Source: an uncultured Gammaproteobacteria bacterium (GTDB taxonomy: Bacteria > Patescibacteriota > Microgenomatia > Daviesbacterales > UBA10151). From it: a DNA stretch of 64,000 bases. A model generated the notes under the pieces. That model searched no databases, was not told where the DNA came from, and worked only from the letters and a program-made list of their open reading frames with translations. How positions within the stretch are numbered: position 1 is the first letter of the stretch; each line of letters begins with the position of its first letter. The stretch spans positions 33,557 through 97,556 of the forward strand of contig CAZYPW010000001.1 of assembly GCA_964649615.1 (NCBI GenBank), given 5' to 3'. Positions 882-63,635 of this stretch are shown here, one piece after another. The translations under genes and the position numbers were made by a program.

Positions 882-1074
882 TGTGGTGTTCCATCCCACC
901 TAGCTTTTAGGCAAAGTGGGGAAGGAACAAGGGAACTTGGTGTAAATCCAAGACTGTGCCGCAACTGTAATCGAGAAGCTATAGCTCTGAGCGAGCAAAG
1001 CGAGTCGAAGAGTCAGGAGACCGACCACATTATAACCCTGAGCAAAGTCGAAGGGATCCCGTAGCAGGAAAAAT

Positions 1075-12848: not shown

Positions 12849-12897
12849 ATATCCTTCGGCAGGCTCAGGACAGGCAATTTTGAGCTAGGTTTTGGGA

Positions 12898-18974: not shown

Positions 18975-19382
18975 GGGGATGTATAGTCTCGACAGGTTAG
19001 CACTTTAAAAACTGCAAGTCGTTAAGGCAAAATTAAACGTTAAATATTTTTGCAAAACACAAACGGCAAGAATATTGCTCGTTCCCTCGCAGGTCAAGTG
19101 CAGGGCCTAATGGCTTTGCGCGGCCAAGGCAGCTTTGCTGCTTTAGCAGCCTAACAGGGTACTTTAGAATATATTCTCTTTCTGGCGGGATACTAAGGTA
19201 AGTACAAAGCCAGGATGCTGTTAATACAATTTTGATCGATCAGTATTAACAAAAGAAAGTTTGGTCATTCAGTAGTTTTCCTGCTAATTGGTTACAACTG
19301 CTGAATAAAAATTAATTAGCTAAACTTGTAGAAGTTTTTAAATTAATAGCTTGCACTCGGCTCACAGCCGACATCTCCACCA
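18975..19382 (+). ncRNA. ssrA: tmRNA (SsrA).
   Basis: 5' GGGGATG pairs with 3' CATCTCC-ACCA to give a 7-bp acceptor stem with the G3:U70 wobble. A TCGAC box follows. An internal ORF ends ...FAALAA-TAA. It lies directly downstream of smpB and is followed by a terminator. Confidence 0.8.
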
Positions 19383-20180: not shown

Positions 20181-20267
20181 GGTGGGTTGTCCGAGTGGTT
20201 TAAGGAGACGGTTCGCTAAACCGTTGGCAGAAATGTCACACAGGTTCGAATCCTGTACCCACCGCCA
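20181..20267 (+). tRNA. tRNA-Ser (anticodon GCU); class II with a long variable arm; CCA encoded.
   Basis: Manual fold: acceptor GGTGGGT/ACCCACC, anticodon loop TCGCTAA (position 33 is C rather than the usual U), T-arm ACAGG-TTCGAAT-CCTGT. Confidence 0.7.
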
Positions 20268-20268
20268 A

Positions 20269-20356
20269 GGAGGGGTCGCCTAGCGGTTTTATGGCGGAAG
20301 TCTTGAAAACTTCTAGGAGCTGACGCTCCTCGTGGGTTCGAATCCCACCCCCTCCG
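20269..20356 (+). tRNA. tRNA-Ser (anticodon UGA).
   Basis: Acceptor GGAGGGG/CCCCTCC, anticodon stem GAAGT/ACTTC with loop CTTGAAA, long variable arm, T-loop TTCGAAT. Confidence 0.75.
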
Positions 20357-20395
20357 CACTTTACATAAGCAGTTTAAAAGCTTAAACTAAAAAGT

Positions 20396-20989
20396 ATGCC
20401 AGAAGCAAAAGCTAAAGGGAAAAAACAACAGGCTAAAAATATTAAAAGGGCTGTAATTGATCCTCATGCTTTCATCCCTAAAACATCAGAGACAGGGGAA
20501 GTTAAAACCTTGCTTGAATGGGAAGCAGTCTCCCGCCCTTTTAGGAAAAAAGACAGGTCTTACTATACTACCTCTGCAGTCATAGTAATTTTACTTTGTT
20601 TAATTCTGCTTTTAGCCAGTGAATTTTTGCTGATTGCAGTAGTTTTAGCCCTCACTTTTGTAGCTTATGTACTGGCTTTTGTTCCACCGCATCCAATCAA
20701 ATATAGAATCTCAACCCAAGGCATTACTATTGGTGAGGATTTTTATTTCTGGCATTTTTTAGATGCTTTTTGGTTTAAAGAAAAAGAAAAACATAAAATC
20801 TTGATTATTCAAACCAGCATTAGATTTCCAGGGCAATTAATGCTGGTCTTAGGAGACCAAAATGAGGAAAAAGTTAAAAAAATTGTGGCTAGATTCTTGC
20901 CCTATATTGAGGTGCCTTATAAATCCTGGATGGAAAAATGGTCAGAAGGACTGCAAAAACATTTCCCCCTGGAAAACGTGCATCGGTAG
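20396..20989 (+). CDS. Hypothetical membrane protein (two TM helices, basic N-terminus).
   Basis: ORF with hydrophobic segments AVIVILLCLILLLASEFLLIAVVLALTFVAYVLAFV. Confidence 0.45.
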   Translation: MPEAKAKGKKQQAKNIKRAVIDPHAFIPKTSETGEVKTLLEWEAVSRPFRKKDRSYYTTSAVIVILLCLILLLASEFLLIAVVLALTFVAYVLAFVPPHPIKYRISTQGITIGEDFYFWHFLDAFWFKEKEKHKILIIQTSIRFPGQLMLVLGDQNEEKVKKIVARFLPYIEVPYKSWMEKWSEGLQKHFPLENVHR

Positions 20990-21055
20990 ATAGACACCTC
21001 GAAGGAGTCAAAGCCCACCTTCGAGGTGAGAAAAAAATGTTAAAATACCCATGTT

Positions 21056-21131
21056 GTCCCTGTAGTTCAATGGATAGAATGCATGGTTGCGGTCCATGTG
21101 GTTGTGGGTTCGACTCCCGCCAGGGACGCCA
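21056..21131 (+). tRNA. tRNA with anticodon GCG (Arg by the standard code); CCA encoded.
   Basis: Acceptor GTCCCTG/CAGGGAC, anticodon stem CATGG/CCATG with loop TTGCGGT, T-arm GTGGG-TTCGACT-CCCGC. A GCG anticodon for Arg is uncommon in bacteria. Confidence 0.6.
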
Positions 21132-21218
21132 GGTGGGATGCGAGAGCGGCTTATTCGGATGGTCTCGAAAACCAATCGAGGCGAAAGTCTCACGCAGGTT
21201 CGAATCCTGCTCCCACCG
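21132..21218 (+). tRNA. tRNA-Ser (anticodon CGA), class II. It starts immediately after the CCA of the preceding tRNA.
   Basis: Acceptor GGTGGGA/TCCCACC, T-arm GCAGG-TTCGAAT-CCTGC, anticodon loop CTCGAAA on an imperfect stem (A27/A43 mismatch). Confidence 0.55.
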
Positions 21219-21267
21219 CAGATTTAACTCTTGACAACCTGTAAGGATTCTGTAATAATTATTACAT

Positions 21268-39042: not shown

Positions 39043-39304
39043 CGCGTGGATTCGAACCACGAACCTTGATCTTACAAGTGCTCCTAATTTACATCAGGAC
39101 TTGGACTATCTCATAACCTTAGCTTTCTTTAGGTTCCGGGCGTATAGTCTCTGAACCTTCCCCGATTTCATCGGGGCTTGGCTGCGGATTATCCTTCGAT
39201 TACACTCAGGACTTCCCGACAATTAACCCAGTTTTTCAACTCCGATTTCTCGGAGAAGCTGCAATATTTTACAGGATCCCGCTCTACCATTGAGCTACAG
39301 GGGA
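39034..39304 (-). tRNA. tRNA-Asn (GUU) interrupted by a 196-nt group I intron in the anticodon loop. Exon 1 is 39271-39304 and exon 2 (with CCA) is 39034-39074.
   Basis: Joined exons: TCCCCTGTAGCTCAATGGTAGAGCGGGATCCTGT|TAAGATCAAGGTTCGTGGTTCGAATCCACGCGGGGGAGCCA. This closely resembles E. coli tRNA-Asn, with anticodon loop CTGTTAA. Confidence 0.75.
39075..39270 (-). other. Group I intron (196 nt, no ORF).
   Basis: The 5' exon ends in U and pairs with the internal guide GCAG, giving a U-G wobble at the splice site. A P2 hairpin CTCCGA-GAAA-TCGGAG is present. Conserved R element GTTCAGAGACTATA and S element GAGATAGTCC form P7. The intron ends in G. Confidence 0.75.
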
Positions 39305-46305: not shown

Positions 46306-48651
46306 ATGGAAGTAACTTTACAAACCAGTAGCCCAAATTATTTAAGTTTAATTGTAGCAGTGATAGGAGCTCTAGCGCTATTGATGGTTTTAGTGGGATT
46401 TTGGTTTTATGTTAAAAAATATGTGATTGGTTGGATTAAATATAGGGACAGGGAAAAATCCTCCTTACAGTTTGTAGTTTTACAAATTAAAGTACCCAGG
46501 GGCAATGAAGTAAAAATTGATGCTGCAGAACAGCTTTTTGGCACCTTTGCTTCTTTAAGAAAGTCTGGAGGGATGTTTTCTTCTTTGCAAGCCCAGCCTC
46601 ATTTATCTTTTGAAATAGTTGCTACCCATGAATCAATTAAATTTTTTGTCTCCTGCCATAAATCTCATAGGGATTTGTTAGAAAAACAAATCCATGGAGC
46701 ATATCCTGATGCAGAGATCAAAGAAGTGCCTGAGTACAATATATTTTCAGAAACTGGCAAGACTGCTTATGCTCAACTTAAGCTCAAAAATGCAGACTAT
46801 TTTCCTATTAAAACCTTTAGGGATTTGCCAACAGACCCTTTGTCTTCTTTAACCTCTGGCTTAGCTAAGATGCAGCTGGGAGAAGGGGCAGCAGTCCAGT
46901 TGATTATTTCTCCAGCTGGCAATAGTTGGAAAGATAAAGGCAAAGCTTTTGCTAAAAAGGAAAAAGAACCAGGTACAGAAAAAAGCCCTAAAGCCCCTCC
47001 TGATGCCAAACAGCTGGAAGCAGTGGAAGGAAAGATTACCAGGGCTGGTTTTAATACTGTTGTCAGGATTGTCACTTCCTCAACATCTGAGGAATCTGCT
47101 AAAGCCCATTTAACTAATATTAAGTCTGCTTTTGAGCAGTTCTCTGGCCCATATAATGGTTTCTCAGGAGCCAAGGTTTATTCTGAGAAAGGTTTTTTGA
47201 CTGATTTTATTTACAGGTATTTGCCTAAGTTTTCTCCCACCCCAGTTTTAACAGCAGATGAGCTGTCATCTATTTTTCATTTTCCTAATAAATCTATAGA
47301 AACTCCTTATATCAACTGGCTTTCTTCTAAAAGGGCCCCAGCACCAGAAAAAGTGCCTACAGAAGGGTTGTATTTGGGAAGGTCTATCTTTAGGGGAGTG
47401 GAGAGGCCAGTCTTTCTGTCTGAGGATGATAGGAGAAGGCATATGTATGTAATTGGAAGGACTGGAACTGGCAAGACTGAATTTTTGAAAACCATGATGT
47501 TGCAAGATATTGTAGCGGGAAAGGGTTTATGTTTTATTGATCCTCATGGTGATGCAGCAGAAGAGCTGTTGCAATTAATACCACCTTCCCGGGCAGAAGA
47601 TGTGATTTATTTTGATCCCTCAGATATGGAAAGGCCTTTTGGTTTAAACATGCTGGAGGCTTATACTGAGGAACAAAAACACTTTGTGGTAGCCTCCATT
47701 ATTGGTTTGATGTATAAATTGTTTGATCCTAATAAAACTGGAATTATTGGGCCCAGGTTTGAGCATGGAGTTAGAAATGCTATGTTAACTGCCATGAGCA
47801 AGCCTGGTACCACTTTTGTGGAAGTGGTTAGAATCATGACAGATGCTGCCTTTGTGCAAGAGTTATTGCCCTTAGTCCAAGATCCTGTGGTTAGAAGGTA
47901 CTGGACAGACCAGATTGCCCAAACGTCAGACTTTCATAAATCAGAAGTGTTGGATTATACAGTTTCCAAGTTTGGCAGGTTTGTGACTAATAAAATGATG
48001 AGAAATATTATTGGCCAATCCCAATCCTCTTTTGATCTAAGAAAAGTGATGGATGAGGGAAAAATATTAATCATTAATTTATCTAAAGGTAAGATTGGTG
48101 AGGAAAATTCTAACTTTTTAGGATTAATACTGGTGCCAAAGATTTTGGCTGCTGCTATGAGCAGGTCTAATATCCCGGAGGACCAAAGGAAAGATTTTTA
48201 TTTGTATGTTGATGAGTTTCAAAATTTTGCCACAGATACTTTTGCCGATATCTTATCTGAAGCCCGAAAATACAAACTTAATTTGATTGTTGCCAATCAA
48301 TTTATTGGCCAAATTGGGGAGGATTTAAAAAATGCTGTTTTTGGAAATGTTGGTACATTAGTAGGATTTAGGGTTGGGGTAACTGATGCTAATTATTTGC
48401 AGCATGAATTTTCACCTATTTTTTCAGAAGCAGATTTAGTGAATGTAGAATCTCCTCATGCTTATATTAAAACTATAGTTAAAGGTGAACCTGTGCCCCC
48501 ATTTTCGCTAGATACCACCAAAGATATGGTCAAATGGAGATCGATGTTAAATCCTCAAGTGGGCCAGGCTATCAGAGAATTATCCAGATTAAAATTTGGC
48601 AGGGATGTGGCTCAAGTTGAAGCAGCAGTGGCTTCCAGAGCCAAGCTGTAA
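46306..48651 (+). CDS. T4SS-type P-loop ATPase of the VirB4/VirD4/HerA (FtsK-HerA) clade, with an N-terminal TM anchor.
   Basis: N-terminal TM LSLIVAVIGALALLMVLVGFWFYV. Walker A VIGRTGTGKTEF, then CFIDPHGD, Walker B LYVDEFQNF, and ARKYKLNLIVANQFIGQI. Confidence 0.6.
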   Translation: MEVTLQTSSPNYLSLIVAVIGALALLMVLVGFWFYVKKYVIGWIKYRDREKSSLQFVVLQIKVPRGNEVKIDAAEQLFGTFASLRKSGGMFSSLQAQPHLSFEIVATHESIKFFVSCHKSHRDLLEKQIHGAYPDAEIKEVPEYNIFSETGKTAYAQLKLKNADYFPIKTFRDLPTDPLSSLTSGLAKMQLGEGAAVQLIISPAGNSWKDKGKAFAKKEKEPGTEKSPKAPPDAKQLEAVEGKITRAGFNTVVRIVTSSTSEESAKAHLTNIKSAFEQFSGPYNGFSGAKVYSEKGFLTDFIYRYLPKFSPTPVLTADELSSIFHFPNKSIETPYINWLSSKRAPAPEKVPTEGLYLGRSIFRGVERPVFLSEDDRRRHMYVIGRTGTGKTEFLKTMMLQDIVAGKGLCFIDPHGDAAEELLQLIPPSRAEDVIYFDPSDMERPFGLNMLEAYTEEQKHFVVASIIGLMYKLFDPNKTGIIGPRFEHGVRNAMLTAMSKPGTTFVEVVRIMTDAAFVQELLPLVQDPVVRRYWTDQIAQTSDFHKSEVLDYTVSKFGRFVTNKMMRNIIGQSQSSFDLRKVMDEGKILIINLSKGKIGEENSNFLGLILVPKILAAAMSRSNIPEDQRKDFYLYVDEFQNFATDTFADILSEARKYKLNLIVANQFIGQIGEDLKNAVFGNVGTLVGFRVGVTDANYLQHEFSPIFSEADLVNVESPHAYIKTIVKGEPVPPFSLDTTKDMVKWRSMLNPQVGQAIRELSRLKFGRDVAQVEAAVASRAKL

Positions 48652-48658
48652 TCCTTTT

Positions 48659-48976
48659 ATGTCATTCCGAGTGAAACGAGGAATCTCTAGATTAAGAAGC
48701 TACTTTGTATATATCTTAGCCAGTAAAACAGGCACATTGTATATTGGTGTAACTAATAATTTAGAAAAAAGAGTTTATGAACACAAAAATAAATTAATTC
48801 CAGGATTTACAGCAAAGTATAATATTGATCGTTTAATGTATTATCAGGAATTTAATGATATAGAAGAGGCAATAGAGATGGAAAAGAAAATAAAGGGTTG
48901 GAGTAGAGAAAAGAAGATAAATCTTATTAAGACTATAAATCCTCACACTAAAGATTTAGCTGATAATTTAACCTAA
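48659..48976 (+). CDS. GIY-YIG nuclease-family protein (UPF0213-like), copy 1.
   Basis: YFVYILASKTGTLYIGVTNNLEKRVYEHKN...GWSREKK. Confidence 0.7.
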   Translation: MSFRVKRGISRLRSYFVYILASKTGTLYIGVTNNLEKRVYEHKNKLIPGFTAKYNIDRLMYYQEFNDIEEAIEMEKKIKGWSREKKINLIKTINPHTKDLADNLT

Positions 48977-49006
48977 AGATGTTTCGCTAATCGCTCAACA
49001 TGACAA

Positions 49007-49090
49007 ACTACTTTTTGTCATTCTGAGGGCAAAGCCCGAAGAATCTCAAGATTAATCTAGAGATTCTTCACTTCGTTCAGGATGACATTG
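49007..49090. repeat. Long imperfect palindrome (~80 nt): GTCATTCTGAGGGCAAAGCCCGAAGAATCTCAAGATTAATCTAGAGATTCTTCACTTCGTTCAGGATGAC. One arm resembles the 5' leader of the adjacent GIY-YIG gene.
   Basis: Read from the sequence. Confidence 0.7.
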
Positions 49091-49118
49091 ATAGATAAGC
49101 TTTGGTATAATTCCTACC

Positions 49119-49189
49119 AGGCCCGTCGTATAATGGTAATACCTGATTCTTATACAATCAAGACGAGGGTTCAATTCCTTCCGGGCCTA
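49119..49189 (+). tRNA. tRNA-Ile (anticodon UAU).
   Basis: Acceptor AGGCCCG/CGGGCCT, D-arm GTAT-AATGGTA-ATAC, anticodon stem TGATT/AATCA with loop CTTATAC, T-loop TTCAATT. Confidence 0.65.
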
Positions 49190-49208
49190 CATAATTCTGG
49201 TCCGCCCA

Positions 49209-49574
49209 CTAGATTGCAAGAAATTCTCTCAGTTCCCCAGATCTGGAGGGGTGTCTTAATCTTCTTAATTCTCTGGCAATGATTAGTCTAGGTCCTCCTA
49301 TTGAAGTGTAACCACATCTATCGCCAATTTCTCTTAAGGTATGCATTGTCCCATCTTCCTTTCCAAAACGTAATCCAACAAGAACCTGTCTTCTTGGGAT
49401 AAGTCCTCGTAACATTTGATCTGTAACACGTATTAGTGTTGTACTTCTTTGCGTATCTTCAAGAAAGTCTTCAGGCTTAATAATAAGGCGTGCTATGCCG
49501 CTGTAATGTCCTCGCCATGTCCAACCACCGTGCAAAAAACGGGCAATCTGCTCATTATATTGGCCACCCCCCAT
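49209..49574 (-). CDS. Sigma-70 region-4-like HTH domain protein.
   Basis: C-terminal LVGLRFGKEDGTMHTLREIGDRCGYTSIGGPRLIIARELRRLRHP resembles sigma region 4. Confidence 0.4.
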   Translation of the reverse strand: MGGGQYNEQIARFLHGGWTWRGHYSGIARLIIKPEDFLEDTQRSTTLIRVTDQMLRGLIPRRQVLVGLRFGKEDGTMHTLREIGDRCGYTSIGGPRLIIARELRRLRHPSRSGELREFLAI

Positions 49575-49641
49575 AACTTCATTAGCCAGTATGATTGATG
49601 CTTCAAGCGGACTTACTTTTAATCTTTCAGCCATATTAGTA

Positions 49642-50505
49642 TTAAAGCTCTTCCAGTTTAACTTTTCCTTCAGAAGGTTGGTTTTGGACAAATTGGAGAT
49701 AGCGTTCTGTGGTGGATAATCTTTTATGTCCGGCCAGCTTGGAGACCATGGTCATAGGGACTCCTGATTGCAATTGATGTGCTACCCAGGTATGCCTTAA
49801 ATCATTTACTTTGGCTTCTTTAATGCCTGCTAACCTAAAGTATCTATCAATAGCTGTCCTAATATTTCTTATTAAAAGCGGCCTGCCTGTTTTAGTGATA
49901 AATAAAGAATGGGATGGGCTTTTTGGCCTGATCCCCAAATACTTAGCTATTGCATCTGCAGCTGGTTTATTTAAAGGAATATCCCTTTCTCTGGTGTCTT
50001 CAAATGGGGGAACATGAAGTGAACCCATCTCTAAATTAACATCCTCAACTCTAAGTCTTGCCAACTCACCAATCCTAATTCCTGTTTGAAGTAAAAGCTC
50101 AATTACTGCAATCATCCTTAAATCTGCTTTAGCTGCATCTCTTAAGGCCCTATATTCCAGTTTAGTTAAGATCCTAGGAGGCTTATTTTCAAATTTAGGA
50201 TGGGAAAGTTTACTGGCAGGATCATCTGAGATTAAACTAGATGCTTTTAAGAATTTAAAGAAAGTTTTAGTAGAGTTAGTTTTTCTGGAAATAGATTTTG
50301 GGGTATAATTTTGTTTGGCTAATCCATCCATGAAAGCCTGCAGATCTTCTGTTTGGGTCTCTTTAGGATCTGTTTTTGATAAGCCTTCCAGGTAAAATAC
50401 CAGTTGATCAATATCTTTGCTATAAGCTAAGATAGTAGCAGAGGCTCGAGATCTGCCTTTTAAATGTCCTATAAATTGTTGATGGGCATCACGTAAAGTA
50501 ACCAT
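49642..50505 (-). CDS. Tyrosine site-specific recombinase (XerC/XerD-like).
   Basis: C-terminal RHTWVAHQLQSGVPMTMVSKLAGHKRLSTTERYLQ with the catalytic R...H..R...Y residues. Confidence 0.85.
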   Translation of the reverse strand: MVTLRDAHQQFIGHLKGRSRASATILAYSKDIDQLVFYLEGLSKTDPKETQTEDLQAFMDGLAKQNYTPKSISRKTNSTKTFFKFLKASSLISDDPASKLSHPKFENKPPRILTKLEYRALRDAAKADLRMIAVIELLLQTGIRIGELARLRVEDVNLEMGSLHVPPFEDTRERDIPLNKPAADAIAKYLGIRPKSPSHSLFITKTGRPLLIRNIRTAIDRYFRLAGIKEAKVNDLRHTWVAHQLQSGVPMTMVSKLAGHKRLSTTERYLQFVQNQPSEGKVKLEEL

Positions 50506-50557
50506 TATGCTATATTTTAATCTTAAAAAGCCCCTTTGTCAATAGTTATAGGATAAT

Positions 50558-50911
50558 ATGATTAAGAAAGCTACCATACTAATATTTATTTTAATAATTT
50601 TGAGCCTATCTTATAATCTTTTTAGGCAATTATCCCTAACAGTTGGCTCCTCAGATAAACTTAACCAAATTTTAGAAGATGTACAAGATTTAGAAATTAA
50701 AAACAAAACTTTAAAGCACAAATTAGAACAGATTAAATCTGCTGAGTTTATTGAAGAACAAGCCAGAAATAAGTTAGGTTTAGGCAAACAAGGAGAAACA
50801 GTAATAATTATTTCTGAAGATAAGATTAACCAAATTTTAGGGGCCAGCCAATCTGCTCAGGGAAAAAGGCTGCCTAATTGGCAAGGCTGGTGGAAGCTAT
50901 TTTTTAACTAA
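50558..50911 (+). CDS. ftsB: FtsB/DivIC-type septum-formation initiator.
   Basis: N-terminal TM, coiled coil, LEQIKSAEFIEEQARNKLGLGKQGETVI. Confidence 0.6.
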   Translation: MIKKATILIFILIILSLSYNLFRQLSLTVGSSDKLNQILEDVQDLEIKNKTLKHKLEQIKSAEFIEEQARNKLGLGKQGETVIIISEDKINQILGASQSAQGKRLPNWQGWWKLFFN

Positions 50912-50920
50912 ACTTCCTTT

Positions 50921-51562
50921 TTAGGGGGCGATTCTGTTAAGAATCCTGCCAAGTAATGATTGTTCAGTCTTTATGACCTGCCCATTTTCAGCTGAAACAA
51001 AAGCTTTGACTTTGGATTTTAGGGGAATAAATCCTAAAAACTTATATTCTCTGACTCCATCTATTTCATAGGCTAACAGGCCGTCTTTTTCCACCAGTGT
51101 AACCAATTTTGCAGTACTGGCCAACTCCCCTTCAGCTGGAGCTGATGTGACAAAACTCATCACTTTTGATGCCAGCATATTTTTAATGGCTGCATCAGGT
51201 AAAACTGTGACTATTTTCTCTTCGCTGGGAGTGGTAACCAAAAGAGTGTTAGTAGCCTTATCTATCTTCAGAGGAAAAGCGGATATAGCGCCTTCTGTAT
51301 TACTAATAACGCCCATTTTGCCTCCATCTGTGGCAATCTTGGGATTGCCTTTGGAAGCATCCATCCCCAAAACATTATTTGTTCCATCAAAATGATTTCT
51401 GGAGATTGGTATATTGGCAGTAATTAAAAGTCCCCCGATTAGTACTGTTACCAAAAGCAGCAAATTTTTGGGCATCAACTTGATAATATGGGAAAGGACC
51501 CCTTTTGTCAAATGTATATGTTTCATACCATAAGGTACAAGATCATGCACCATTCGGTGCAT
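50921..51562 (-). CDS. Hypothetical secreted or membrane-anchored protein.
   Basis: ORF with an N-terminal hydrophobic segment. Confidence 0.4.
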   Translation of the reverse strand: MHRMVHDLVPYGMKHIHLTKGVLSHIIKLMPKNLLLLVTVLIGGLLITANIPISRNHFDGTNNVLGMDASKGNPKIATDGGKMGVISNTEGAISAFPLKIDKATNTLLVTTPSEEKIVTVLPDAAIKNMLASKVMSFVTSAPAEGELASTAKLVTLVEKDGLLAYEIDGVREYKFLGFIPLKSKVKAFVSAENGQVIKTEQSLLGRILNRIAP

Positions 51563-51590
51563 GGTTGCGGAGGTAATAGGCTGTTAGAAC

Positions 51591-51863
51591 TTACCTTTTT
51601 CTGTAAACTTCATCGTGTGTACCTATATCAAAGAAGTAGGCCTCATCACCGCTTTGTAGATAGGTCATTCTGGCACCCTTGGTAATAGAAATGCTCCATA
51701 TATTTTCAAGCTCTCCAGATAATTTATGCACACGTAGTGATTTGTGTCTAGGGTTTAAAGCAAAAAGGGTTAATTGTTTCTTAATTCTATTAGAAAACTT
51801 GGGGTCTTTTTTGTTGATTTCTTCCAGTTCTCTTCGCAGCTTGTCATCAAGTCTAATCTGCAT
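51591..51863 (-). CDS. RelE/ParE-superfamily toxin.
   Basis: ...IKKQLTLFALNPRHKSLRVHKLSGELENIWSISI...FDIGTHDEVY. Confidence 0.6.
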   Translation of the reverse strand: MQIRLDDKLRRELEEINKKDPKFSNRIKKQLTLFALNPRHKSLRVHKLSGELENIWSISITKGARMTYLQSGDEAYFFDIGTHDEVYRKR

Positions 51864-52117
51864 TATAGATTTTTGAAAAATTTATCAACATCTTTTACTA
51901 AAATTGCTTTATCTTTATTTTTTAAAGCCTCTTTAGCCTTTCTAATTGTTCTATCTGATGCCTCAAAAGTAGGGTATTCCATATCAGCTACATCTTTGAG
52001 TATTAAGTGTTTAATATACCCTGCCAAAGGCATGCCAAACTTACTGGCCTTACTTTCCAGGAAATCTTTTAGAGCCAAAGGTAAATTTAGTTTCACTTGT
52101 GTCTGTGGAGTGATCAT
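51863..52117 (-). CDS. Cognate antitoxin (RelB/DinJ-like).
   Basis: A small gene that overlaps the toxin start by 1 nt. Confidence 0.5.
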   Translation of the reverse strand: MITPQTQVKLNLPLALKDFLESKASKFGMPLAGYIKHLILKDVADMEYPTFEASDRTIRKAKEALKNKDKAILVKDVDKFFKNL

Positions 52118-52280
52118 GAGGCTATTATATCACCAATTTAAGGACTTTTCAAGGACTAAAATAAGTGATATGATTCAGCAATGAAAATACAATGTCCATC
52201 ATGTAAAAAATTTAAAGATTCTAACTATACCATCCAGGTGGTTAAAATTTGAGACTAAAGCCCTTCGATTACACTCAGGG

Positions 52281-52640
52281 TTATAATGTTTTAAGTTTTT
52301 CTAAGTCTCTTTTTATTAATGCTTCTTTCTTAGCTCTAGTCCAACCTTTAAGTTGTTTTTCTCTTTTCATAGCCTCAAGCAAGATAGGATAGTTTTCTGA
52401 ATAAATTAGTTTAAATTCTCCATTTTCTTTTGAAAATTTAGAAGCTCTTGTAGCTTTGTTTTTATGATCTGTTAATCTTTGTGCAAGATTATTTGTTTGG
52501 CCAATATATAAACTGTTGTTTAAAAATCGGAGTATGTAGACAGTATAGGGCATGGACGCTATATCCCTTCGACTCGATGACTCGCTCAGGCCTTCGGCTC
52601 TGAGGCTCAGGCTCGAAGAGGCGATTCGACTTCTGAACAT
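52281..52640 (-). CDS. GIY-YIG nuclease-family protein, copy 2. It has a repeat-derived N-terminal extension, and the core probably starts at the MPYTVYIL Met (~52520).
   Basis: MPYTVYILRFLNNSLYIGQTNNLAQRLTDHKN...GWTRAKK. Confidence 0.7.
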   Translation of the reverse strand: MFRSRIASSSLSLRAEGLSESSSRRDIASMPYTVYILRFLNNSLYIGQTNNLAQRLTDHKNKATRASKFSKENGEFKLIYSENYPILLEAMKREKQLKGWTRAKKEALIKRDLEKLKTL

Positions 52641-52711
52641 GAATCTTTTATGTTAAATTAAGTCGGTTATAACCGTGAGCGAGTCCGCCAAAGGCGGACG
52701 AGTCGAATCGG

Positions 52712-52783
52712 TTGCGGAGGTAGGAATCGAACCTACTGCCTGGAGATTATGAGCCTCCCGTGCAACCGTTACACTTCCCCGCT
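52712..52783 (-). tRNA. tRNA with anticodon CAU (Met). The A1/A72 mismatch at the end of the acceptor stem suggests the initiator tRNA.
   Basis: Minus-strand fold: anticodon stem GGAGG/TCTCC with loop CTCATAA, T-arm GTAGG-TTCGATT-CCTAC. Confidence 0.55.
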
Positions 52784-52810
52784 TGCATATTGTAACATAG
52801 AATATAAATT

Positions 52811-53056
52811 ATGTGGTTTGTTTATATACTCCAATGTGTTGATGGAAGCCTTTACACAGGATCAACTAATAATCTTAAAAAAAGATTTTTGGATCATCAA
52901 AATGGCAAAGGGGGGAGATATACCAGATCCCATAAAGTAGTTAAAATAGTATATTCAGAAGAGCTTAATACAAAATCAAAAGCCCTAAAAAGAGAAAGGC
53001 AAATCAAAAGCTATGATAAAAAGAAAAAAATTAAACTCTGGCTTGACCCAACTTAA
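52811..53056 (+). CDS. GIY-YIG nuclease-family protein, copy 3.
   Basis: MWFVYILQCVDGSLYTGSTNNLKKRFLDHQNG... Confidence 0.7.
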   Translation: MWFVYILQCVDGSLYTGSTNNLKKRFLDHQNGKGGRYTRSHKVVKIVYSEELNTKSKALKRERQIKSYDKKKKIKLWLDPT

Positions 53057-53077
53057 CTGCTGAGCTACTGTTAAATT

Positions 53078-54448
53078 ATGAGTGAGAAAATATTTAAAAG
53101 GGTAGTGGAAGCGCCTGCTGTAGTTTTGGGCCAAAGTTTAGATACCTCCAAAAAGCTTGCCAGATTTATCTATAGGCACAAAGATATTAAAAAAGCCAGG
53201 GAATACTGGCATACTTTAGGACCTGGTTTAACCACAGGTGCTGCTGATGATGACCCATCAGGCATTGCTACTTATTCTCAAGCAGGAGCAGGATATGGAT
53301 TTAACTTTTTGTGGACTGCTGGTCTTAGCTTTCCTTTAATGGCTGTGGTACAAGAAATGTGTGCCAGAATTGGTTTAGTGACAGGCAGGGGATTGGCTGG
53401 AAATATCAGAATATTTTTCCCAAAGTGGGTACTTTTGACCTGTACCTTTTTACTTTTTGCAGCTAATTCTTTAAACATTGGAGCTGACCTGGGAGCCATG
53501 GCTCAAGCAGTCCAACTTTTGTATCCTGAGGTTAATTTTGAGTTTTTGGTGTTAGCCTTTGCTATTTTTTCTTTATCTTTGCAAATATTTACTACCTATG
53601 ATAAATATGCCAAATATTTAAAGTGGTTAGCACTAGTGCTTTTGGCCTATGTTTTTTCAGCCCTTTCTGCCAATTTAGATTGGGAGCAGATTGCTATTAA
53701 TGCAGTTTTACCCAGTATTAGTTTTGATAGAGATCAAATATTTATTATCACAGCTATTTTAGGTACCACTATCTCACCTTATTTATTTTTCTGGCAAACC
53801 TCACAAGAGATTGAGGAGCAGATTTTAGGAGGCAGAACTACTTTAAAATTAAGGCAGGTAGAAACAACCAATAAGGAGATTAAAGATATGAGGTTAGATG
53901 TCTGGTCAGGGATGTTTTTATCTAATTTAGTCATGTTTTTTATTATTGCAGCTTGTGGAGCCATTCTTTTCCCTGCTGGGATTACTAATATCAGCTCAGC
54001 AGCAGAGGCTGCAGAAGCCCTGCGGCCGATTGCCGGAGATGGCACATACCTGCTTTTTGCCTTAGGCATTATTGGCACAGGCCTTTTGGCAATTCCAGTT
54101 CTGGCAGGATCTGCTTCCTATGCTATTTCTGAGAGTTTTGGCTGGAAATTCGGGCTTTATAGAAGGCTTAAGGAAGCAAATGCCTTTTATGGAGTGATAA
54201 TTCTTTCAACCTTAATTGGTTTGGTGATTAATTTTATGGGTTTTGATCCTATTAAAATCTTAATCTATACAGCGGTGGCTAATGGTTTGATTGCGCCTGT
54301 TATTTTAGCCACTATTGTTTTACTCAGCAGTAATAAACGGGTGATGGGAGAGAGGATTAATAGTCCGTTAACCGCTGCTTTAGGCTGGTTTATTACCTTA
54401 GTGATGATTGTTGCAGGTGTGGCTACTATATATTCCTTCTTTGTTTAA
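53078..54448 (+). CDS. mntH: NRAMP-family divalent metal (Mn/Fe) transporter.
   Basis: GPGLTTGAADDDPSGIATYSQAGA consensus motif and ~11 TM helices. Confidence 0.85.
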   Translation: MSEKIFKRVVEAPAVVLGQSLDTSKKLARFIYRHKDIKKAREYWHTLGPGLTTGAADDDPSGIATYSQAGAGYGFNFLWTAGLSFPLMAVVQEMCARIGLVTGRGLAGNIRIFFPKWVLLTCTFLLFAANSLNIGADLGAMAQAVQLLYPEVNFEFLVLAFAIFSLSLQIFTTYDKYAKYLKWLALVLLAYVFSALSANLDWEQIAINAVLPSISFDRDQIFIITAILGTTISPYLFFWQTSQEIEEQILGGRTTLKLRQVETTNKEIKDMRLDVWSGMFLSNLVMFFIIAACGAILFPAGITNISSAAEAAEALRPIAGDGTYLLFALGIIGTGLLAIPVLAGSASYAISESFGWKFGLYRRLKEANAFYGVIILSTLIGLVINFMGFDPIKILIYTAVANGLIAPVILATIVLLSSNKRVMGERINSPLTAALGWFITLVMIVAGVATIYSFFV

Positions 54449-54572: not shown

Positions 54573-55886
54573 ATGAAAATAATTGTTTTAGCAGGTGGGG
54601 AAGGTAAAAGGATGTGGCCTATCCAAACAGACAAATGTCTGATCCCTTTTTTGGGTCAACCCCTTTTGTCCCATAACTTAAAAAAAATCAAAGATGTAGT
54701 AGATGGGGAATTTGTCATAATTTCTTCGCCTTCCAGTAAGGATGGGATAGGAAAAGTAGCTTCAGAGTTGAAATTACATTACAAAATAGCTGTTCAAAAT
54801 GAACCTAAAGGTATGGCTGATGCCCTACTCTCTGCAAAAGAATATCTGGAAGGAGAAGTTTTAGTGGTTAATGCTGAAGATATTTTGGACCCTGGGGCAT
54901 TTGAGATTAATAGGGAAGTAGATGTGAGCCTTGTTGGATTAAAAGTAGACAAATATTTTCCAGGAGGATATTTAAGGGTAGAAGGGGAAAGCCCTTCGAC
55001 TTCGCTCAGGGTTGGTAAGGTACAGGGAATAGTAGAAAAGCCAGGAGAGGGAAATGAACCATCAGATATGGTGAAGTTGGTAGTAGATTATTTTAAAGAC
55101 GGGAAAAAGTTAGTGGAATATTTAGAAAATGCTAAATCAGAGGTAGATGATGTTTATGAAAAGGCTTTAGATCAGATGATTTCTGATGGACTAGAAGTAA
55201 AGTTTAAAGAATATAGTGGAGTATGGATTCCATTAAAATATCCATGGCAGATTTTAGATATGCTGGCTTACTTTTTGGACAATATTGAACAACAGATTTC
55301 CCCGGGTGCAAATGTGTCTGAAAAGGCCATTATTGATGGAAAAGTAGTGATTGAAGAGGGAGTCAGAGTGTTTGAAGGAGCTGTAATTAAAGGTCCCTGC
55401 TATATAGGTAAAAATGTCATTGTGGGAAATAATTCCATGATCCGGGAATCTGAGCTGGAAGAGGGTTGCGTGACAGGCTTTAATTCTGATATTACCAGAA
55501 GTTACATTGGAGCAAATTCCTGGTTTCATACCAATTATATTGGGGATTCTGTGATAGAGGGAGATTTTGGGATGGGTAGTGGAGCAGTTTTGGCAAATTT
55601 AAGGCTGGATGATCATACAATCAGAGTACATGTGAATGGAGAATTAATTGATTCAGGAAGGCACAAGCTAGGGCTGATTGTGGGGAAGGGCTCAAGAGTG
55701 GGAGTGAATGCTTCAACCATGCCAGGGGTTAAGGTTGGTTCAAATTCATTTGTAGGGCCTGGAGTGACTTTATATGATGATGTAGAGGATAATAAGAAGG
55801 TTTTGGTAAAACAGGAGTTGGAAGTAACTGAACATACTCCAGCATTAACCAGCTATGATCAGTTTAGAGATAAGTTAGAGAAATAG
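54573..55886 (+). CDS. Sugar-phosphate nucleotidyltransferase with a C-terminal left-handed beta-helix (hexapeptide-repeat) domain.
   Basis: N-terminal IIVLAGGEGKRMWP, C-terminal hexapeptide repeats. Confidence 0.75.
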   Translation: MKIIVLAGGEGKRMWPIQTDKCLIPFLGQPLLSHNLKKIKDVVDGEFVIISSPSSKDGIGKVASELKLHYKIAVQNEPKGMADALLSAKEYLEGEVLVVNAEDILDPGAFEINREVDVSLVGLKVDKYFPGGYLRVEGESPSTSLRVGKVQGIVEKPGEGNEPSDMVKLVVDYFKDGKKLVEYLENAKSEVDDVYEKALDQMISDGLEVKFKEYSGVWIPLKYPWQILDMLAYFLDNIEQQISPGANVSEKAIIDGKVVIEEGVRVFEGAVIKGPCYIGKNVIVGNNSMIRESELEEGCVTGFNSDITRSYIGANSWFHTNYIGDSVIEGDFGMGSGAVLANLRLDDHTIRVHVNGELIDSGRHKLGLIVGKGSRVGVNASTMPGVKVGSNSFVGPGVTLYDDVEDNKKVLVKQELEVTEHTPALTSYDQFRDKLEK

Positions 55887-56619: not shown

Positions 56620-56789
56620 TTTCTATTGTTAGAGCAAGAATTGGGTCTAATTCATTAGTTGGTCCTGGAGTTGTTTTATATGGAGATATAAAAGAAAATA
56701 AAAAAGTTTTGGTTAAACAGGAACTGGAGATAACTGAACATGCACCAGCTTTAACAAGTTATGATCAATTTAGAAAAAAGATTCAATAA
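56620..56789 (+). pseudogene. 3' fragment of a paralog of the 54573-55886 nucleotidyltransferase.
   Basis: ...IGSNSLVGPGVVLYGDIKENKKVLVKQELEITEHAPALTSYDQFRKKIQ* aligns with the last ~50 aa of the upstream gene. Confidence 0.6.
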
Positions 56790-56792
56790 TAA

Positions 56793-61374: not shown

Positions 61375-62627
61375 TGTTGCTTTATGAGTTTGAAGGCAAG
61401 CAGTTGTTTAAAAATGTAGGTATCAGTGTGCCAGTTGGTCAGTTAATCAGCAGTTCAGAGGATCAGCAAATCAATATTTCAGCACCCCTTGTATTAAAAG
61501 CACAAACCTTATCTGGTAAAAGAGCAGAAGGAGGGGGGATTGTCAAAATTGACAATGGACAATTGACAATGGACAATTTGAAAAAATTGTTTGGGAAAAC
61601 AGTAAATGGAGAAAAAGTAGAGAGAGTGTTGGTAGAGGAGATGGTGAATATAGAGAGGGAATATTATCTTTCTTTTTCTTATTCTACAGAAACCAGGGGG
61701 ACGGTTTTGACATTTGGTGAAGGAGGAACCGGGGCTGAAGGGAAAGGGGCTAGAACATATCCAATAGATTTAACAGAAGAAGATTCCCTAGGTGCCTGCC
61801 TAATCCACCTCCCAGGTGTACTAAAAGATGCTGCTAAAAAGCTTTGGGAGGTGTTTATAAAATATGATTGTGAACTGGCAGAAATTAATCCATTAGTAGT
61901 GATAAAGGGATACCCTTCGACTCGCTCCGTGGTTCTACAAGCTCACCACTCCGCTCGCTCAGGGCAAAGCAAGAATCCGCTGCGGATTCTTGCTTTGGAC
62001 GCCAAAATAATTTTGGATGATGACGCCACTTTTAGAAGAGAAATAAAATTCCCGGAAAGAAATCTTTTTGGCAGGCCTTCAACTGAAAGAGAAATTGAAG
62101 CAAGAAAAATAGATGAAGGGGATCATCGGGGTACTGCCGGATCTGTGTACTGGGATTTAGATGGGGATATTGCTGTGATTGCTGCAGGAGGAGGGGGGAG
62201 TGTGGTTAATATGGATGCTTTACTTGCTTTTGGGGGTAAACCTGCCAACTACACTGAACACTCCGGAAATCCTCCCAGAGAAAAATTAAAAAAACTAACC
62301 AAAATTGTTTTGAGTAAACCTAATTTAAAAGGTTGTTGGTTTGTGGGAGGTACTGCTAATTTTACAGATATTTATGAAACTTTAATGGGTTTTGTAGAAG
62401 GCTTAAGGGAAGTAGATCCAAAACCAGCATATCCAATAGTTATCCGCCGTGGTGGACCAAGGGATAAAGAGGCTTTTGAAGCATTAAAAGAAATAGGCAA
62501 AAAAGAAGGTTTTGATTTTCATATTTTTGGCCGGGAAACACCAATGACTTCTACAGCTAAGATTATGGTGGATCTGGCATACGGGAATATCAAAACTCAA
62601 ATGTCAAATGTTAAATCTACAACTTAA
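61375..62627 (+). CDS. ADP-forming acyl-CoA synthetase beta-like subunit (SucC-like ATP-grasp). It carries an in-frame GC-rich repeat insertion.
   Basis: ATP-grasp N-terminus. C-terminal AAGGGGSVVNMDALLAFGGKPANYTE. Confidence 0.7.
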
Positions 62628-62702: not shown

Positions 62703-63635
62703 ATGGCTATTTTAGTTACTGAAAAAACTCGAGTCTTAATACAAGGCATTACTGGTAAAGAAGGTTCAAAAGTGGCTTTGCAGATGAGAAATTATGGTAC
62801 TAAAGTAGTAGCCGGAGTGACTCCCGGAAAAGGCGGGCAGGAAGTACATGGGATTCCTGTTTATAATTCTGTTAAGGAAGCATTAGAGAATCACCCAGGA
62901 ATAAATACCTCTTTAATTTCTGTGCCTAATTTTGCTGCTTTTGGGGCAATGAGAGAAGCTATTGAGGCAAAGATTTCCCTAATTAATGTTTTTACAGAAC
63001 ATGTCCCAATTGCTGATACTGCTAAAGCAATAGGGTTAGCCAGAAACACCTCGGAGGTGGAAGGAAAGATAAGAATTGTGGGACCATCTTCTATGGGAAT
63101 TATATCTCCAGGAATTGGTAAGGTGGGACAAATTGGAGGGGAAGACCCAAGAGGGGTTTTTAGAAAAGGTAGCGTGGGGGTTATTTCCAAATCAGGAGGG
63201 ATGGCCTCAGAGGTTTCCTGGATTTTGACTCAAGCTGGAATGGGGCAGAGTACTGTGATAGGGATCGGAGGAGATGTCCTGGAGGGATCTAGTTTTGCAG
63301 ATTTACTTTTGGAATTTGAAAAAGATCCTCAAACAGAAAGTGTGGTAATTTTTGGAGAAATTGGCGGAACTTATGAGGAAGATGCTGCAGAATTTATAAA
63401 AAGTGGAAATCCTTCGACTCACTCCGCTCGCTCAGGACCAAGGTTTACCAAACCAGTTGTAGCATTTGTGTCTGGTTTATTTGCAGAGACTTTGCCATCT
63501 GGAACCAAATTAGGTCATGCAGGAGCCATAGTATATGGAAATAAAGGAAGTTATAAATCAAAAATAAAGAGCTTAGAGGCAGCCGGTGTCAAAATAGCCA
63601 AAACCCCAGATGAAATTCCAGAGCTGTTAAAGTAG
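62703..63635 (+). CDS. Succinyl/acyl-CoA synthetase alpha-like subunit (SucD-like). It carries two in-frame GC-rich repeat insertions.
   Basis: VLIQGITGKEGS...GPSSMGIISPG...SKSGGMASEV...GIGGD...HAGAIV. Confidence 0.8.
   Translation: MAILVTEKTRVLIQGITGKEGSKVALQMRNYGTKVVAGVTPGKGGQEVHGIPVYNSVKEALENHPGINTSLISVPNFAAFGAMREAIEAKISLINVFTEHVPIADTAKAIGLARNTSEVEGKIRIVGPSSMGIISPGIGKVGQIGGEDPRGVFRKGSVGVISKSGGMASEVSWILTQAGMGQSTVIGIGGDVLEGSSFADLLLEFEKDPQTESVVIFGEIGGTYEEDAAEFIKSGNPSTHSARSGPRFTKPVVAFVSGLFAETLPSGTKLGHAGAIVYGNKGSYKSKIKSLEAAGVKIAKTPDEIPELLK

Follow-up and report, generated by a model that had tools for sequence, protein, structure and literature searches.

Ssn proteins are single-domain GIY-YIG nucleases of about 94 amino acids (aa; CDD cd10448), and the characterised enzymes come from Neisseria and Wolbachia (Chenal 2025, Nat Commun, PMC11893778). 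Their target is a hairpin repeat with a defined orientation, which they recognise in single-stranded form and cleave just upstream, on one strand only; they are inactive on duplex DNA and on RNA. The repeat is called NTS in Neisseria (CGTCATTCCCGCGMAVGCGGGAATCYRG) and SRM in general. SRM hairpins are located near 71% of the Ssn genes and on both sides of the gene in 42%, a conserved 5' GTCAT tag is crucial for binding by SsnA, and 2% of the NTS in N. meningitidis lie inside protein genes. The authors liken Ssn/SRM to IS200/IS605 and to the pairing of repetitive extragenic palindromic (REP) elements with RAYT transposases; their text does not mention Patescibacteria or candidate phyla (PMC11893778). 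Here we describe three small GIY-YIG genes (copies 1 to 3) and two families of hairpin repeats in 64,000 nucleotides (nt) of contig CAZYPW010000001.1, a stretch with a GC content of 37% from a bacterium of the candidate phyla radiation (CPR), which as a whole is referred to as the window. Its closest protein matches place the host near Candidatus Daviesbacteria. Copies 1 and 2 are probably Ssn-type single-strand DNA endonucleases with cognate hairpin repeats, with the dispersed repeat units resembling REP elements or Rickettsia palindromic elements (RPE) and copy 3 being a repeat-free paralogue.

A second group of described elements is relevant to the repeats themselves. CGTC-tagged REPs form a class that includes Neisseria dRS3 and Rickettsia RPE-4 and RPE-6; TGTC variants are common, head-to-head dimers are favoured, copies occur inside genes and no dedicated transposase has been found (Di Nocera et al. 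2013, PMC3733652). The repeats of the window share with this class the short tagged palindromes, the head-to-head dimers, in-frame copies in genes, copies within RNA genes and the lack of an associated RAYT-type transposase. They differ in that one family has no CGTC/TGTC tag, in that conserved G.A steps interrupt the stems, which are not plain Watson-Crick stems, and in that their CPR host has a small genome of 37% GC. The Ssn/SRM system itself is already known; what is new is its occurrence in CPR, a repeat family that the published search pattern does not cover, the cassette of copy 2 at tRNA ends and the density of insertions in genes and structured RNAs.

Domain calls on the three open reading frames (ORFs) were made by searching with the Pfam GIY-YIG profile PF01541, and the genes are as follows:

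48659 to 48976, plus strand: GIY-YIG copy 1, 105 aa, a putative Ssn-type single-domain nuclease by Pfam (E 6e-17) and BLAST
52281 to 52550, minus strand: GIY-YIG copy 2, true coding sequence of 89 aa plus stop codon, putative member of a CPR-specific Ssn-like subfamily (Pfam E 4.5e-17)
52811 to 53056, plus strand: GIY-YIG copy 3, 81 aa, apparently intermediate between the UPF0213/YhbQ and Ssn types (Pfam E 1.4e-19)

The profile covers each protein over its whole length, in agreement with the original prediction of three small GIY-YIG genes. All three are chromosomal, free-standing genes which encode the catalytic domain alone, without a DNA-binding domain. A search of the three proteins against NCBIfam gave no informative family, and tblastn with 86 related proteins found no fourth GIY-YIG copy or pseudogene in the window.

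We placed the proteins relative to Ssn by a BLAST proxy, in which each copy, and E. coli YhbQ as reference, was compared with proteins with NTS-like hairpin flanks (from loci L049, L051 and L073 of the genome survey described below). The flanks of these three genes are near-canonical NTS, e.g. GTCATTCCCGCG..CGCGGGAATC. Copy 1 is 52-59% identical to the three proteins (E 1e-28 to 1e-36) and 52-62% identical to proteins with either GTCAT-tagged or NTS-like hairpin flanks (E 1e-28 to 1e-37), as against 23% identity to YhbQ. Against the proteins of L049, L051 and L073, copy 2 reached E values of about 1e-17 to 1e-18, copy 3 about 1e-15 and YhbQ about 1e-4. Upstream of the conserved YFVYIL of copy 1 the only in-frame starts are an ATG at 48659 and a GTG at 48671, both within the repeat to the left of the gene.

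For copy 2, a survey of a collection of 5.8 billion proteins yielded 440 homologues. Because almost all of them are 89-90 aa long (hosts include Daviesbacteria, Zambryskibacteria and Wolfebacteria), the real start of copy 2, going by this comparison, is the ATG at 52550 (MPYTVYIL). The annotated "N-terminal extension" is on the same sequence grounds a non-coding leader filled with repeats, through which ORF calling had read. The repeat that the original prediction placed within this extension does exist (CCCTTCGACTCGATGACTCGCTCAGG at 52565-52590), but it belongs to the leader and not to the protein. Five other loci (L001, L002, L009, L010 and L013) have a homologous leader, which reads GTCGAATGTCCTGAGCGA...GAGTCGAAGGA and then ATG. 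The catalytic residues Y5, Y15, R25, H29 and E64 are invariant across 37 homologues of copy 2, and its AlphaFold2 model (predicted local distance difference test score, pLDDT, of 91) has the GIY-YIG fold, with UPF0213, HIGLE, Slx1 and UvrC-N as best fold matches. Copy 2 is 45-51% identical to SRM-flanked proteins and 28% identical to YhbQ.

Copy 3 is of a different character. It matches UPF0213 protein BH0048 in the PDB at E 8e-13 and contains the UPF0213-like motif H-x-x-G-x-G-x-x-Y-T-R, and its scores against YhbQ and BH0048 (61-62 bits) are about the same as those against SRM-flanked proteins (52-63 bits). In size, fold class, motif and repeat-free flanks it resembles the UPF0213/YhbQ proteins (E. 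coli YhbQ; PDB 1zg2, BH0048; PDB 1ywl, EF2693), from which copies 1 and 2 are clearly more distant (23-28% identity to YhbQ). We found no repeat in the 27 nt upstream or the 21 nt downstream of copy 3. By sequence it would be a repeat-free paralogue of UPF0213/YhbQ character that scores about equally against Ssn-type proteins; L027, the surveyed locus closest to copy 3, does carry repeats of the second family. The claim that each of the three genes is bordered by repeats accordingly holds for copies 1 and 2 but not for copy 3. Nor is copy 3 located immediately between two tRNA genes: tRNA-Met is 27 nt away, whereas the next tRNA (54478) is 1.4 kb off, beyond the gene of a 456-aa transporter. 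A second tRNA or tRNA fragment directly after copy 3 (53037-53075, D-arm-like by eye) had no support from ARAGORN or Rfam.

About 15 repeat copies were located in the window, 7 of which are dispersed away from the GIY-YIG genes. Family 1 is defined by the pattern TGTCAT-NNN-GA...GA-NNNN-TCT, which has 4 matches in the window where 0.01 would be expected; none of them is more than 120 nt away from copy 1:

48660 to 48686, plus strand: family 1 repeat a (TGTCATTCCGAGTGAAACGAGGAATCT), a tagged hairpin on the left side of copy 1, overlapping its start codon (pattern match)
48977 to 49005, minus strand: repeat b, inverted, immediately 3' of the copy 1 stop codon (pattern match)
49016 to 49046, plus strand: repeat c (TGTCATTCTGAGGGCAAAGCCCGAAGAATCT; pattern match)
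49061 to 49087, minus strand: repeat d, forming a head-to-head dimer with repeat c (pattern match)

All four units conform to the pattern and show the NTS-like layout, in which a 5' (C/T)GTCAT tag precedes the hairpin and a GGAATC-like tail follows it; the family and the Neisseria NTS consensus have GTCATTCC...GGAATC in common. Copy 1 is flanked on both sides by inverted units (repeats a and b). As single-stranded DNA repeat c folds at -6.1 kcal/mol (z = -2.5), and repeats c and d together make up an 88-nt palindrome at 49005-49092 that folds at -19.2 kcal/mol (z = -6.0). The repeat-like 5' leader and downstream palindrome suspected for copy 1 are thus four TGTCAT-tagged units, the last two of which form the palindrome. 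The best promoter-like site of the region, at 49082-49111 (ATGACA-18-TATAAT, 11/12 with TG), is located just upstream of tRNA-Ile, and its -35 box is formed by the opposite strand of the TGTCAT tag that belongs to repeat d. Taken as a whole, a scan of 48500-53200 for promoters and terminators did not exceed shuffles.

Family 2 was searched with the strict pattern CCTGAG-N3-30-TCGAAGG, i.e. on the purine-rich strand CCTGAG, a variable apex and TCGAAGG. Six strict copies are present in the window against 0.00 expected, and with looser copies the number rises to about eleven. Four of the units surround copy 2, two in the leader, one past the stop codon and a long inverted one at tRNA-Met:

52551 to 52640, minus strand: leader of copy 2 with family 2 units at 52566-52590 and 52592-52618, previously annotated as N-terminal extension
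52262 to 52279, minus strand: family 2 short unit CCTGAGTGTAATCGAAGG, two bases past the copy 2 stop codon (pattern match)
52675 to 52708, plus strand: family 2 long unit GTGAGCGAG-TCCGCCAAAGGCGGA-CGAGTCGAAT, preceded by GGTTATAACC, abutting the 3' end of tRNA-Met (motif and fold)

Copy 2 is hence also flanked on both sides, by untagged units: those of the leader on the gene strand, 52262-52279 past the stop codon and 52675-52708 in inverted orientation. Family 2 does not have the NTS-like layout, as it is without GTCAT. In other CPR loci the gene-proximal unit is preceded by a GTCGAATGTC prefix in place of the GTCAT tag, and in genes of the copy 2 type this proximal unit is located 5-25 nt upstream of the start codon. 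In the long forms the apex holds either a second CGAG...CGAG step or a plain hairpin. The 41 nt from 52672 to 52712 fold at -10.9 kcal/mol (z = -2.9). Together with the 88-nt dimer of family 1 this segment stands out in nearest-neighbour DNA folding, where single units of 20-35 nt were mostly no better than shuffles.

We therefore turn to covariation for the structure of the short family 2 units. All distinct 20-mers of the form N4-GAG-N-N3-N-T-CGA-N4 were collected from all fetched loci (n=187). The four outer pairs are complementary in 46 of the 187 words, compared to about 2% expected, with at least 7 compensating stems (TCCT/AGGA, CCCT/AGGG, TCCC/GGGA, TGGT/ACCA, TGCT/AGCA, TTCT/AGAA and CACT/AGTG). 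Of these 46 words, 40 can form the inner closing pair (C-G in 33, T-A in 6) versus 48 of 120 controls, and 29 have a GNA loop. Covariation across loci hence supports a family 2 hairpin. In the proposed model the repeat of copy 2, as single-stranded DNA, would consist of a 4-bp stem followed by sheared tandem G.A pairs (Py-GA-Pu steps), above which would come either a C-G-closed GNA triloop, as a C(GNA)G mini-hairpin, or an additional hairpin, with one T bulged out, as proposed for d(CCCTGAGCGAAGTCGAAGGG).

To what extent repeats accompany such genes elsewhere can be seen from one scan of 185,579 species genomes, which gave 80 loci with relatives of the GIY-YIG proteins. Within 150 nt of the gene the motif of a GTCAY tag plus YYGAR reaches a density of 3.6 per kb; the values for 150-300 nt, 0.3-1 kb and 2.5-5 kb are 2.8, 0.48 and 0.17 per kb, corresponding to a near/far ratio of about 21-fold. 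The strict family 2 pattern occurs 10 times in the nearest 23 kb and twice in the 297 kb at a distance of 2.5-5 kb. Orientation of the repeats is mostly "+" upstream and "-" downstream of the gene, and the association spans many phyla. Tagged repeats accompany 32 of 40 genes of the copy 1 type and the untagged type none of the 40, while among the 24 loci with genes of the copy 2 type, nearly all from CPR, at least 7 show the untagged type and 2 show tagged repeats. From these sequence comparisons the repeat type tracks the protein subfamily. An association of repeats and GIY-YIG genes, looked for in other genomes as the original prediction had proposed, is observed both in the window and around the 80 loci, and it has been published as the Ssn/SRM association (PMC11893778).

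The remaining seven units are dispersed through the window:

987 to 1010, plus strand: family 2 long unit, prefixed by GCTATAGC, within a cobalamin riboswitch, where it occupies the variable peripheral hairpin (Rfam, motif)
1037 to 1054, plus strand: family 2 short unit that spans the 3' boundary of the riboswitch match and ends 20 nt before the ATG at 1075 (motif)
12853 to 12870, minus strand: degenerate intergenic family 2-like unit TCCTGAGCCTGCCGAAGG (motif)
39193 to 39210, minus strand: family 2 short unit that is the P5 hairpin of a tRNA-Asn group I intron (Rfam alignment, exact 18-mer)
54990 to 55013, minus strand: family 2 short unit inserted in frame, with 24 nt (SPSTSLRV), in the gene of a sugar-1-phosphate nucleotidyltransferase (PDB alignment)
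61913 to 61964, minus strand: composite 52-nt family 2 unit in an in-frame insertion of about 60 nt in a gene resembling SucC or the citryl-CoA synthetase large subunit
63408 to 63440, minus strand: family 2 long unit as a 33-nt in-frame insertion (NPSTHSARSGP) in a SucD-like gene (PDB alignment)

In the nucleotidyltransferase the insertion corresponds to an 8-residue gap at the exact position in the alignment with PDB 5z09 and 2ggo, and in the SucD-like protein to an 11-residue gap versus PDB 2yv2. The SucD-like insertion is missing from all 13 closest homologues (up to 89% identical) as well as from the DNA of locus L202; a target-site duplication could not be defined there. The SucC-like protein has 32 residues from EINPL to ALDA compared to 12 in 6hxq_B, so that the insertion comprises about 20 aa with uncertain boundaries. 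Right after this unit, at 61971-61995 in the SucC-like coding sequence, we noticed a perfect 11-bp palindrome, GCAAGAATCCG-CTG-CGGATTCTTGC, which may belong to the same insertion. All three insertions (24, 33 and about 60 nt) are multiples of three and lie in one orientation and one phase, in which CCT TCG ACT is read as P-S-T. The mRNA of the three genes is the pyrimidine strand, whereas the transcripts of the intron and of the riboswitch carry the purine-rich strand. The riboswitch match extends from 867 to 1043 (Rfam, 67.5 bits) and is followed by a 487-aa ORF at 1075-2538.

The dispersed units are probably REP/RPE-like insertions and in this respect agree with the suggestion that the repeats are footprints, the third protein insertion with the uncertainty about its boundaries. 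Ogata et al. are said to have described in 2000 that Rickettsia palindromic elements inserted in frame into genes, and the dispersed family 2 insertions show the same behaviour. The frequency differs from that of NTS: 3 of the about 15 repeats lie within protein genes here, against the 2% in N. meningitidis. Dispersed through the genome like REP or RPE elements, the repeats would persist only where a hairpin-sized insertion is tolerated, that is in intergenic DNA, in frame in protein surface loops and in peripheral RNA hairpins.

The sequence directly past the copy 2 stop codon (CCCTTCGATTACACTCAGGG, 52261-52280) had been noted to share 18 nt with the group I intron. The match is exact: 52262-52279 and 39193-39210 are identical over 18 nt. 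The intron (Rfam RF00028, 92 bits; 39082-39280, minus strand) is complete with 199 nt, contains no ORF and interrupts a tRNA with a GUU anticodon loop. In the Rfam alignment the unit fits exactly on the P5 stem-loop without extra length; the flanks of the two 18-mers are unrelated, the match being confined to the 18-20 nt of the P5 hairpin. A scan of metagenome contigs for the exact 18-mer CCTGAGTGTAATCGAAGG gave at least 124 copies in at least 120 contigs (L082-L201), with recurrent but differing classes of flanks. None of the matches listed has an intron-like context, and none has a GIY-YIG gene within 300 nt, the latter being uninformative, as the contigs are short and orphan repeats are expected. 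Since the 18-mer is widespread, its flank classes differ and none among the matches listed is intron-like, the match is by sequence explained by a common repeat variant that is present twice, and not by chance or by the remains of an intron; the alternative of an isolated coincidence gives way to a repeat module. Among the matches listed, at least 31 copies of the 18-mer lie in the larger repeat context GTTTAC|core|GAAGGG/GAATGGG and about 18 in ACCTGT|core|ATAGG, and some form tandem arrays, e.g. three copies 169 nt apart in contig L164. The idea that the 18-mer caps longer hairpins was dropped, as flank complementarity was only weakly enriched among the matches listed (22% vs 13% with at least 5/6 pairs).

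Copy 2 is located in a segment with a distinct arrangement at a tRNA gene, which is delimited by two features:

52710 to 52783, minus strand: tRNA-Met (CAT), its 3' end being the left boundary of the segment (tRNA search)
51563 to 51575, minus strand: exact 13-nt direct repeat of the tRNA-Met 3' end (TACCTCCGCAACC), right boundary of the segment

By our own estimate (128,000 positions / 4^13) a 13-nt match is expected about 0.002 times by chance in the window. The segment (51563-52722, 1.15 kb) comprises family 2 repeats, copy 2 and a toxin-antitoxin pair (RelE/YafQ-like toxin at 51591-51863, antitoxin at 51863-52117), and by its sequence resembles an att-type islet. The start of the long inverted family 2 unit coincides with the tRNA-Met 3' end. 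Equivalent junctions at a tRNA 3' end, mostly of tRNA-Gln, are found in five surveyed CPR loci (L003, L006, L007, L013 and L027). Where there is no tRNA, the unit is preceded by a tRNA-3'-like fragment of 12-17 nt (L001, L002, L004, L009, L010, L016 and L045), and in L010 a second copy of the terminal 14 nt of tRNA-Gln lies 333 nt further downstream, immediately before the cassette. A downstream tRNA 3'-end repeat of at least 10 nt was not found in five other tRNA-adjacent loci. Hidden intron-containing tRNAs upstream of L001, L002, L004 and L009 were considered, but Rfam found none, only the 12-17 nt fragments. The arrangement points to insertion of the segment at tRNA ends, with either an integrase or the GIY-YIG protein as the agent; a XerC/D-type tyrosine recombinase gene is located nearby at 49642-50505.

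Taken together, copies 1 and 2 resemble the Ssn/SRM system in being single-domain GIY-YIG proteins of about 90-105 aa with intact catalytic residues, and in that their genes are flanked by inverted hairpin repeats of 20-50 nt which are also dispersed and whose type co-varies with the subfamily. Copy 1 would be paired with the TGTCAT-tagged hairpin, closely like the Neisseria NTS and the CGTC-type REPs, and copy 2, as a CPR-specific subfamily, with the untagged CCTGAG-apex-TCGAAGG repeat. The data show the domain identity, the two repeat families, their association with the genes, the insertions and the covariation of the stems. By analogy with the Neisseria enzymes, both nucleases may cut their own repeats in single-stranded DNA, and the cell may use them on incoming or replicating single-stranded DNA as in the control of transformation in Neisseria. 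CPR bacteria are thought to depend on DNA uptake. The copy 2 system differs from the described one in its untagged repeat built on CTGAG...CGAAG (tandem G.A) modules, in a cassette that abuts tRNA 3' ends and in its CPR host.

Several points weigh against this assignment. The published SRM search pattern (HGTCWYN(0-2)YYVSBRHN(0-5)WNVSBRGN(0-2)RNCYNB) matches 0 of the about 15 repeats because their internal GA steps break it; its one match in the window, at 20525-20555, is unrelated (0.08 expected by chance). As the pattern matched no repeat, the resemblance to NTS rests on the explicit motif match and on protein homology. Family 2 lacks the 5' GTCAT tag described as crucial for SsnA binding (PMC11893778). 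Membership in cd10448 is suggested by BLAST proxies, and copy 2 reaches no more than the 45-51% identity to SRM-flanked proteins given above. About half of the copy 2-like loci are without a recognisable repeat (16 of 24 with the strict regular expression, fewer by eye). The 20-nt family 2 units fold at only -0.9 to -1.9 kcal/mol, not beyond shuffles, so that the G.A-pair structure is derived from covariation and from general knowledge of the Py-GA-Pu and GCGNAGC motifs and not from computation. Finally, Ssn activity in the CPR members is carried over by analogy from the work on Neisseria.

A link between the GIY-YIG genes and intron homing had also been raised as a speculation. On such a reading the genes would be, or derive from, homing endonucleases and the 18-nt match would be the remnant of an intron that once carried copy 2. 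GIY-YIG is indeed the catalytic domain of homing endonucleases such as I-TevI and I-BmoI, the identity with the intron is exact, and there is a weak, sub-threshold match to the TIGR01453 "group I intron endonuclease" profile (20-22 bits against a cut-off of 56, profile positions 3-46 only). However, the catalytic domain is the only likeness: homing endonucleases have a linker and a C-terminal DNA-binding domain and about 200-270 aa, copies 1 to 3 have neither at 81-105 aa, and they are free-standing, not intron-encoded, with no duplex target site implied. The match ends with the P5 hairpin, the 18-mer recurs in the metagenome contigs without intron-like flanks among the matches listed, and five other family 2 copies of the window have the same ends. 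Since the intron has no ORF and the proteins no DNA-binding domain, this explanation fails, and we give it next to no credence. The repeats could instead be primarily RNA modules, acting as hairpin caps, as processing or termination signals after tRNAs or as protein-binding G.A motifs, with the adjacent GIY-YIG genes incidental or the repeat an attenuator in their 5' untranslated region. In line with this, the G.A strand is the transcribed strand in both structured RNAs, the distal unit begins exactly at the tRNA 3' end in six loci and the proximal unit lies shortly before the start codon of copy 2-like genes. Yet the mRNA of all three protein genes has the opposite, pyrimidine strand, no Rfam family matches the repeats at the gathering threshold, and the characterised SsnA does not bind RNA (PMC11893778). 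An association that spans many phyla, with a repeat type that tracks the nuclease subfamily, is not predicted by an RNA cap either, and we consider RNA modules improbable.

Mobility is the most serious alternative, although it extends the Ssn assignment and is compatible with it rather than contradicting it. A GIY-YIG gene with its inverted hairpins would then form an autonomous mobile "GIY-YIG REPtron", the nuclease moving the hairpins and the dispersed copies being non-autonomous. The best functional analogy are the REPtrons (REP plus RAYT), in which a single-copy nuclease gene is likewise framed by a hairpin recognised as single-stranded DNA, with hundreds of orphan copies elsewhere; there, however, the REPs have a GTAG tag and the RAYTs, as IS200/IS605-family transposases of the HUH/Y1 type, both cleave and rejoin DNA, whereas here the enzyme is a GIY-YIG hydrolase. 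The order of repeat, gene and inverted repeat is similar to that of insertion sequences, an analogy with IS200/IS605 and REP/RAYT that was also drawn for Ssn/SRM (PMC11893778), and CGTC-type REPs are without a dedicated transposase (PMC3733652). The 33-nt insertion absent from the closest SucD homologues, the common orientation and P-S-T phase of the three coding insertions, and homologues of copy 2 that are 63-87% identical across distant CPR lineages fit mobility as well. So do the position of copy 2 in a 1.15-kb segment between 13-nt direct repeats of a tRNA 3' end and the tRNA-3' fragments that accompany the cassette in L001, L002, L004, L009 and L010. On the other hand, GIY-YIG enzymes hydrolyse DNA, and the published Ssn activity is site-specific cleavage of single-stranded DNA with no strand transfer known. 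The 13-nt tRNA repeat is a classic signature of a tyrosine-integrase island, and the recombinase gene is nearby, the five other tRNA-adjacent loci have no downstream tRNA repeat, and the SucD insertion shows no definable target-site duplication. Such an element is conceivable, but we think it unlikely. Still more doubtful is a specific version in which the CPR-specific nuclease of the copy 2 type mobilises its own tag-less, G.A-rich mini-hairpin: the element would be active now, would have recently entered three metabolic genes and taken over the P5 and riboswitch hairpins, and its cassette would insert precisely at tRNA 3' ends together with a copy of the tRNA end. We thus retain the assignment of copies 1 and 2 as Ssn-type nucleases with cognate repeats as the probable one.

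The surroundings of the genes were also inspected. Copy 1 starts 8 nt after a gene for a 781-aa VirD4/TraG/HerA-like ATPase (weak Pfam matches), and is followed on its 3' side by a tRNA-Ile (49119-49190) whose TAT anticodon is unusual, by a 160-aa ORF that matches nothing in Pfam and by the tyrosine recombinase; the region 46306-50505 may be an integrated element. Among the neighbours scanned with Pfam, which yielded the recombinase, the toxin and the VirD4-like ATPase, there is no Y1 transposase. In the Microgenomates contig L008 a DUF3800-II RNA (Rfam RF02961, 70.7 bits; 3714-3781) is located between tRNA-Gln and the GIY-YIG gene. Further repeats in the window are unrelated to those of the GIY-YIG genes: a 100-nt inverted repeat at 9064-9163 and 13924-14023 (93% complementary, arms 4.8 kb apart) and five AT-rich units of 56 nt with a TTTTGA-like periodicity (9136, 11603, 13957, 15710 and 62643). 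A 151-nt direct repeat is found at 55735-55885 and 56641-56791 (77% identity, spacing of 906 nt), the first copy at the 3' end of the nucleotidyltransferase gene. Three tRNA-Ser and one tRNA-Arg are clustered at 20181-21219, some of them abutting or 1 nt apart, and a transfer-messenger RNA is encoded at 18975-19382.

For annotation, the findings mean that "N-terminal extensions" of such GIY-YIG genes would be repeat read-through and that short P-S-T-x-S-x-R-x-G inserts in CPR enzymes would be derived from repeats. Ssn nucleases were described only in 2025 and are under development as sequence-specific cutters of single-stranded DNA. Each new pair of nuclease and repeat is a candidate for a new specificity, and two such pairs are present here in one genome; the CCTGAG-N-TCGAAGG repeat lies outside the published search pattern and is hence missed by current surveys. 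The locus would extend the Ssn system to CPR/Patescibacteria and is a clear case from nature in which hairpin repeats have entered proteins, an intron and a riboswitch. It is also relevant to the long-standing problem of the spread of REP/RPE-type repeats and of the enzyme behind it. If mobilisation by the copy 2 type were true, this nuclease would be the missing "transposase" for the tagged CGTC-REP and RPE repeats, and a hydrolytic GIY-YIG domain would be driving a REP-like element.

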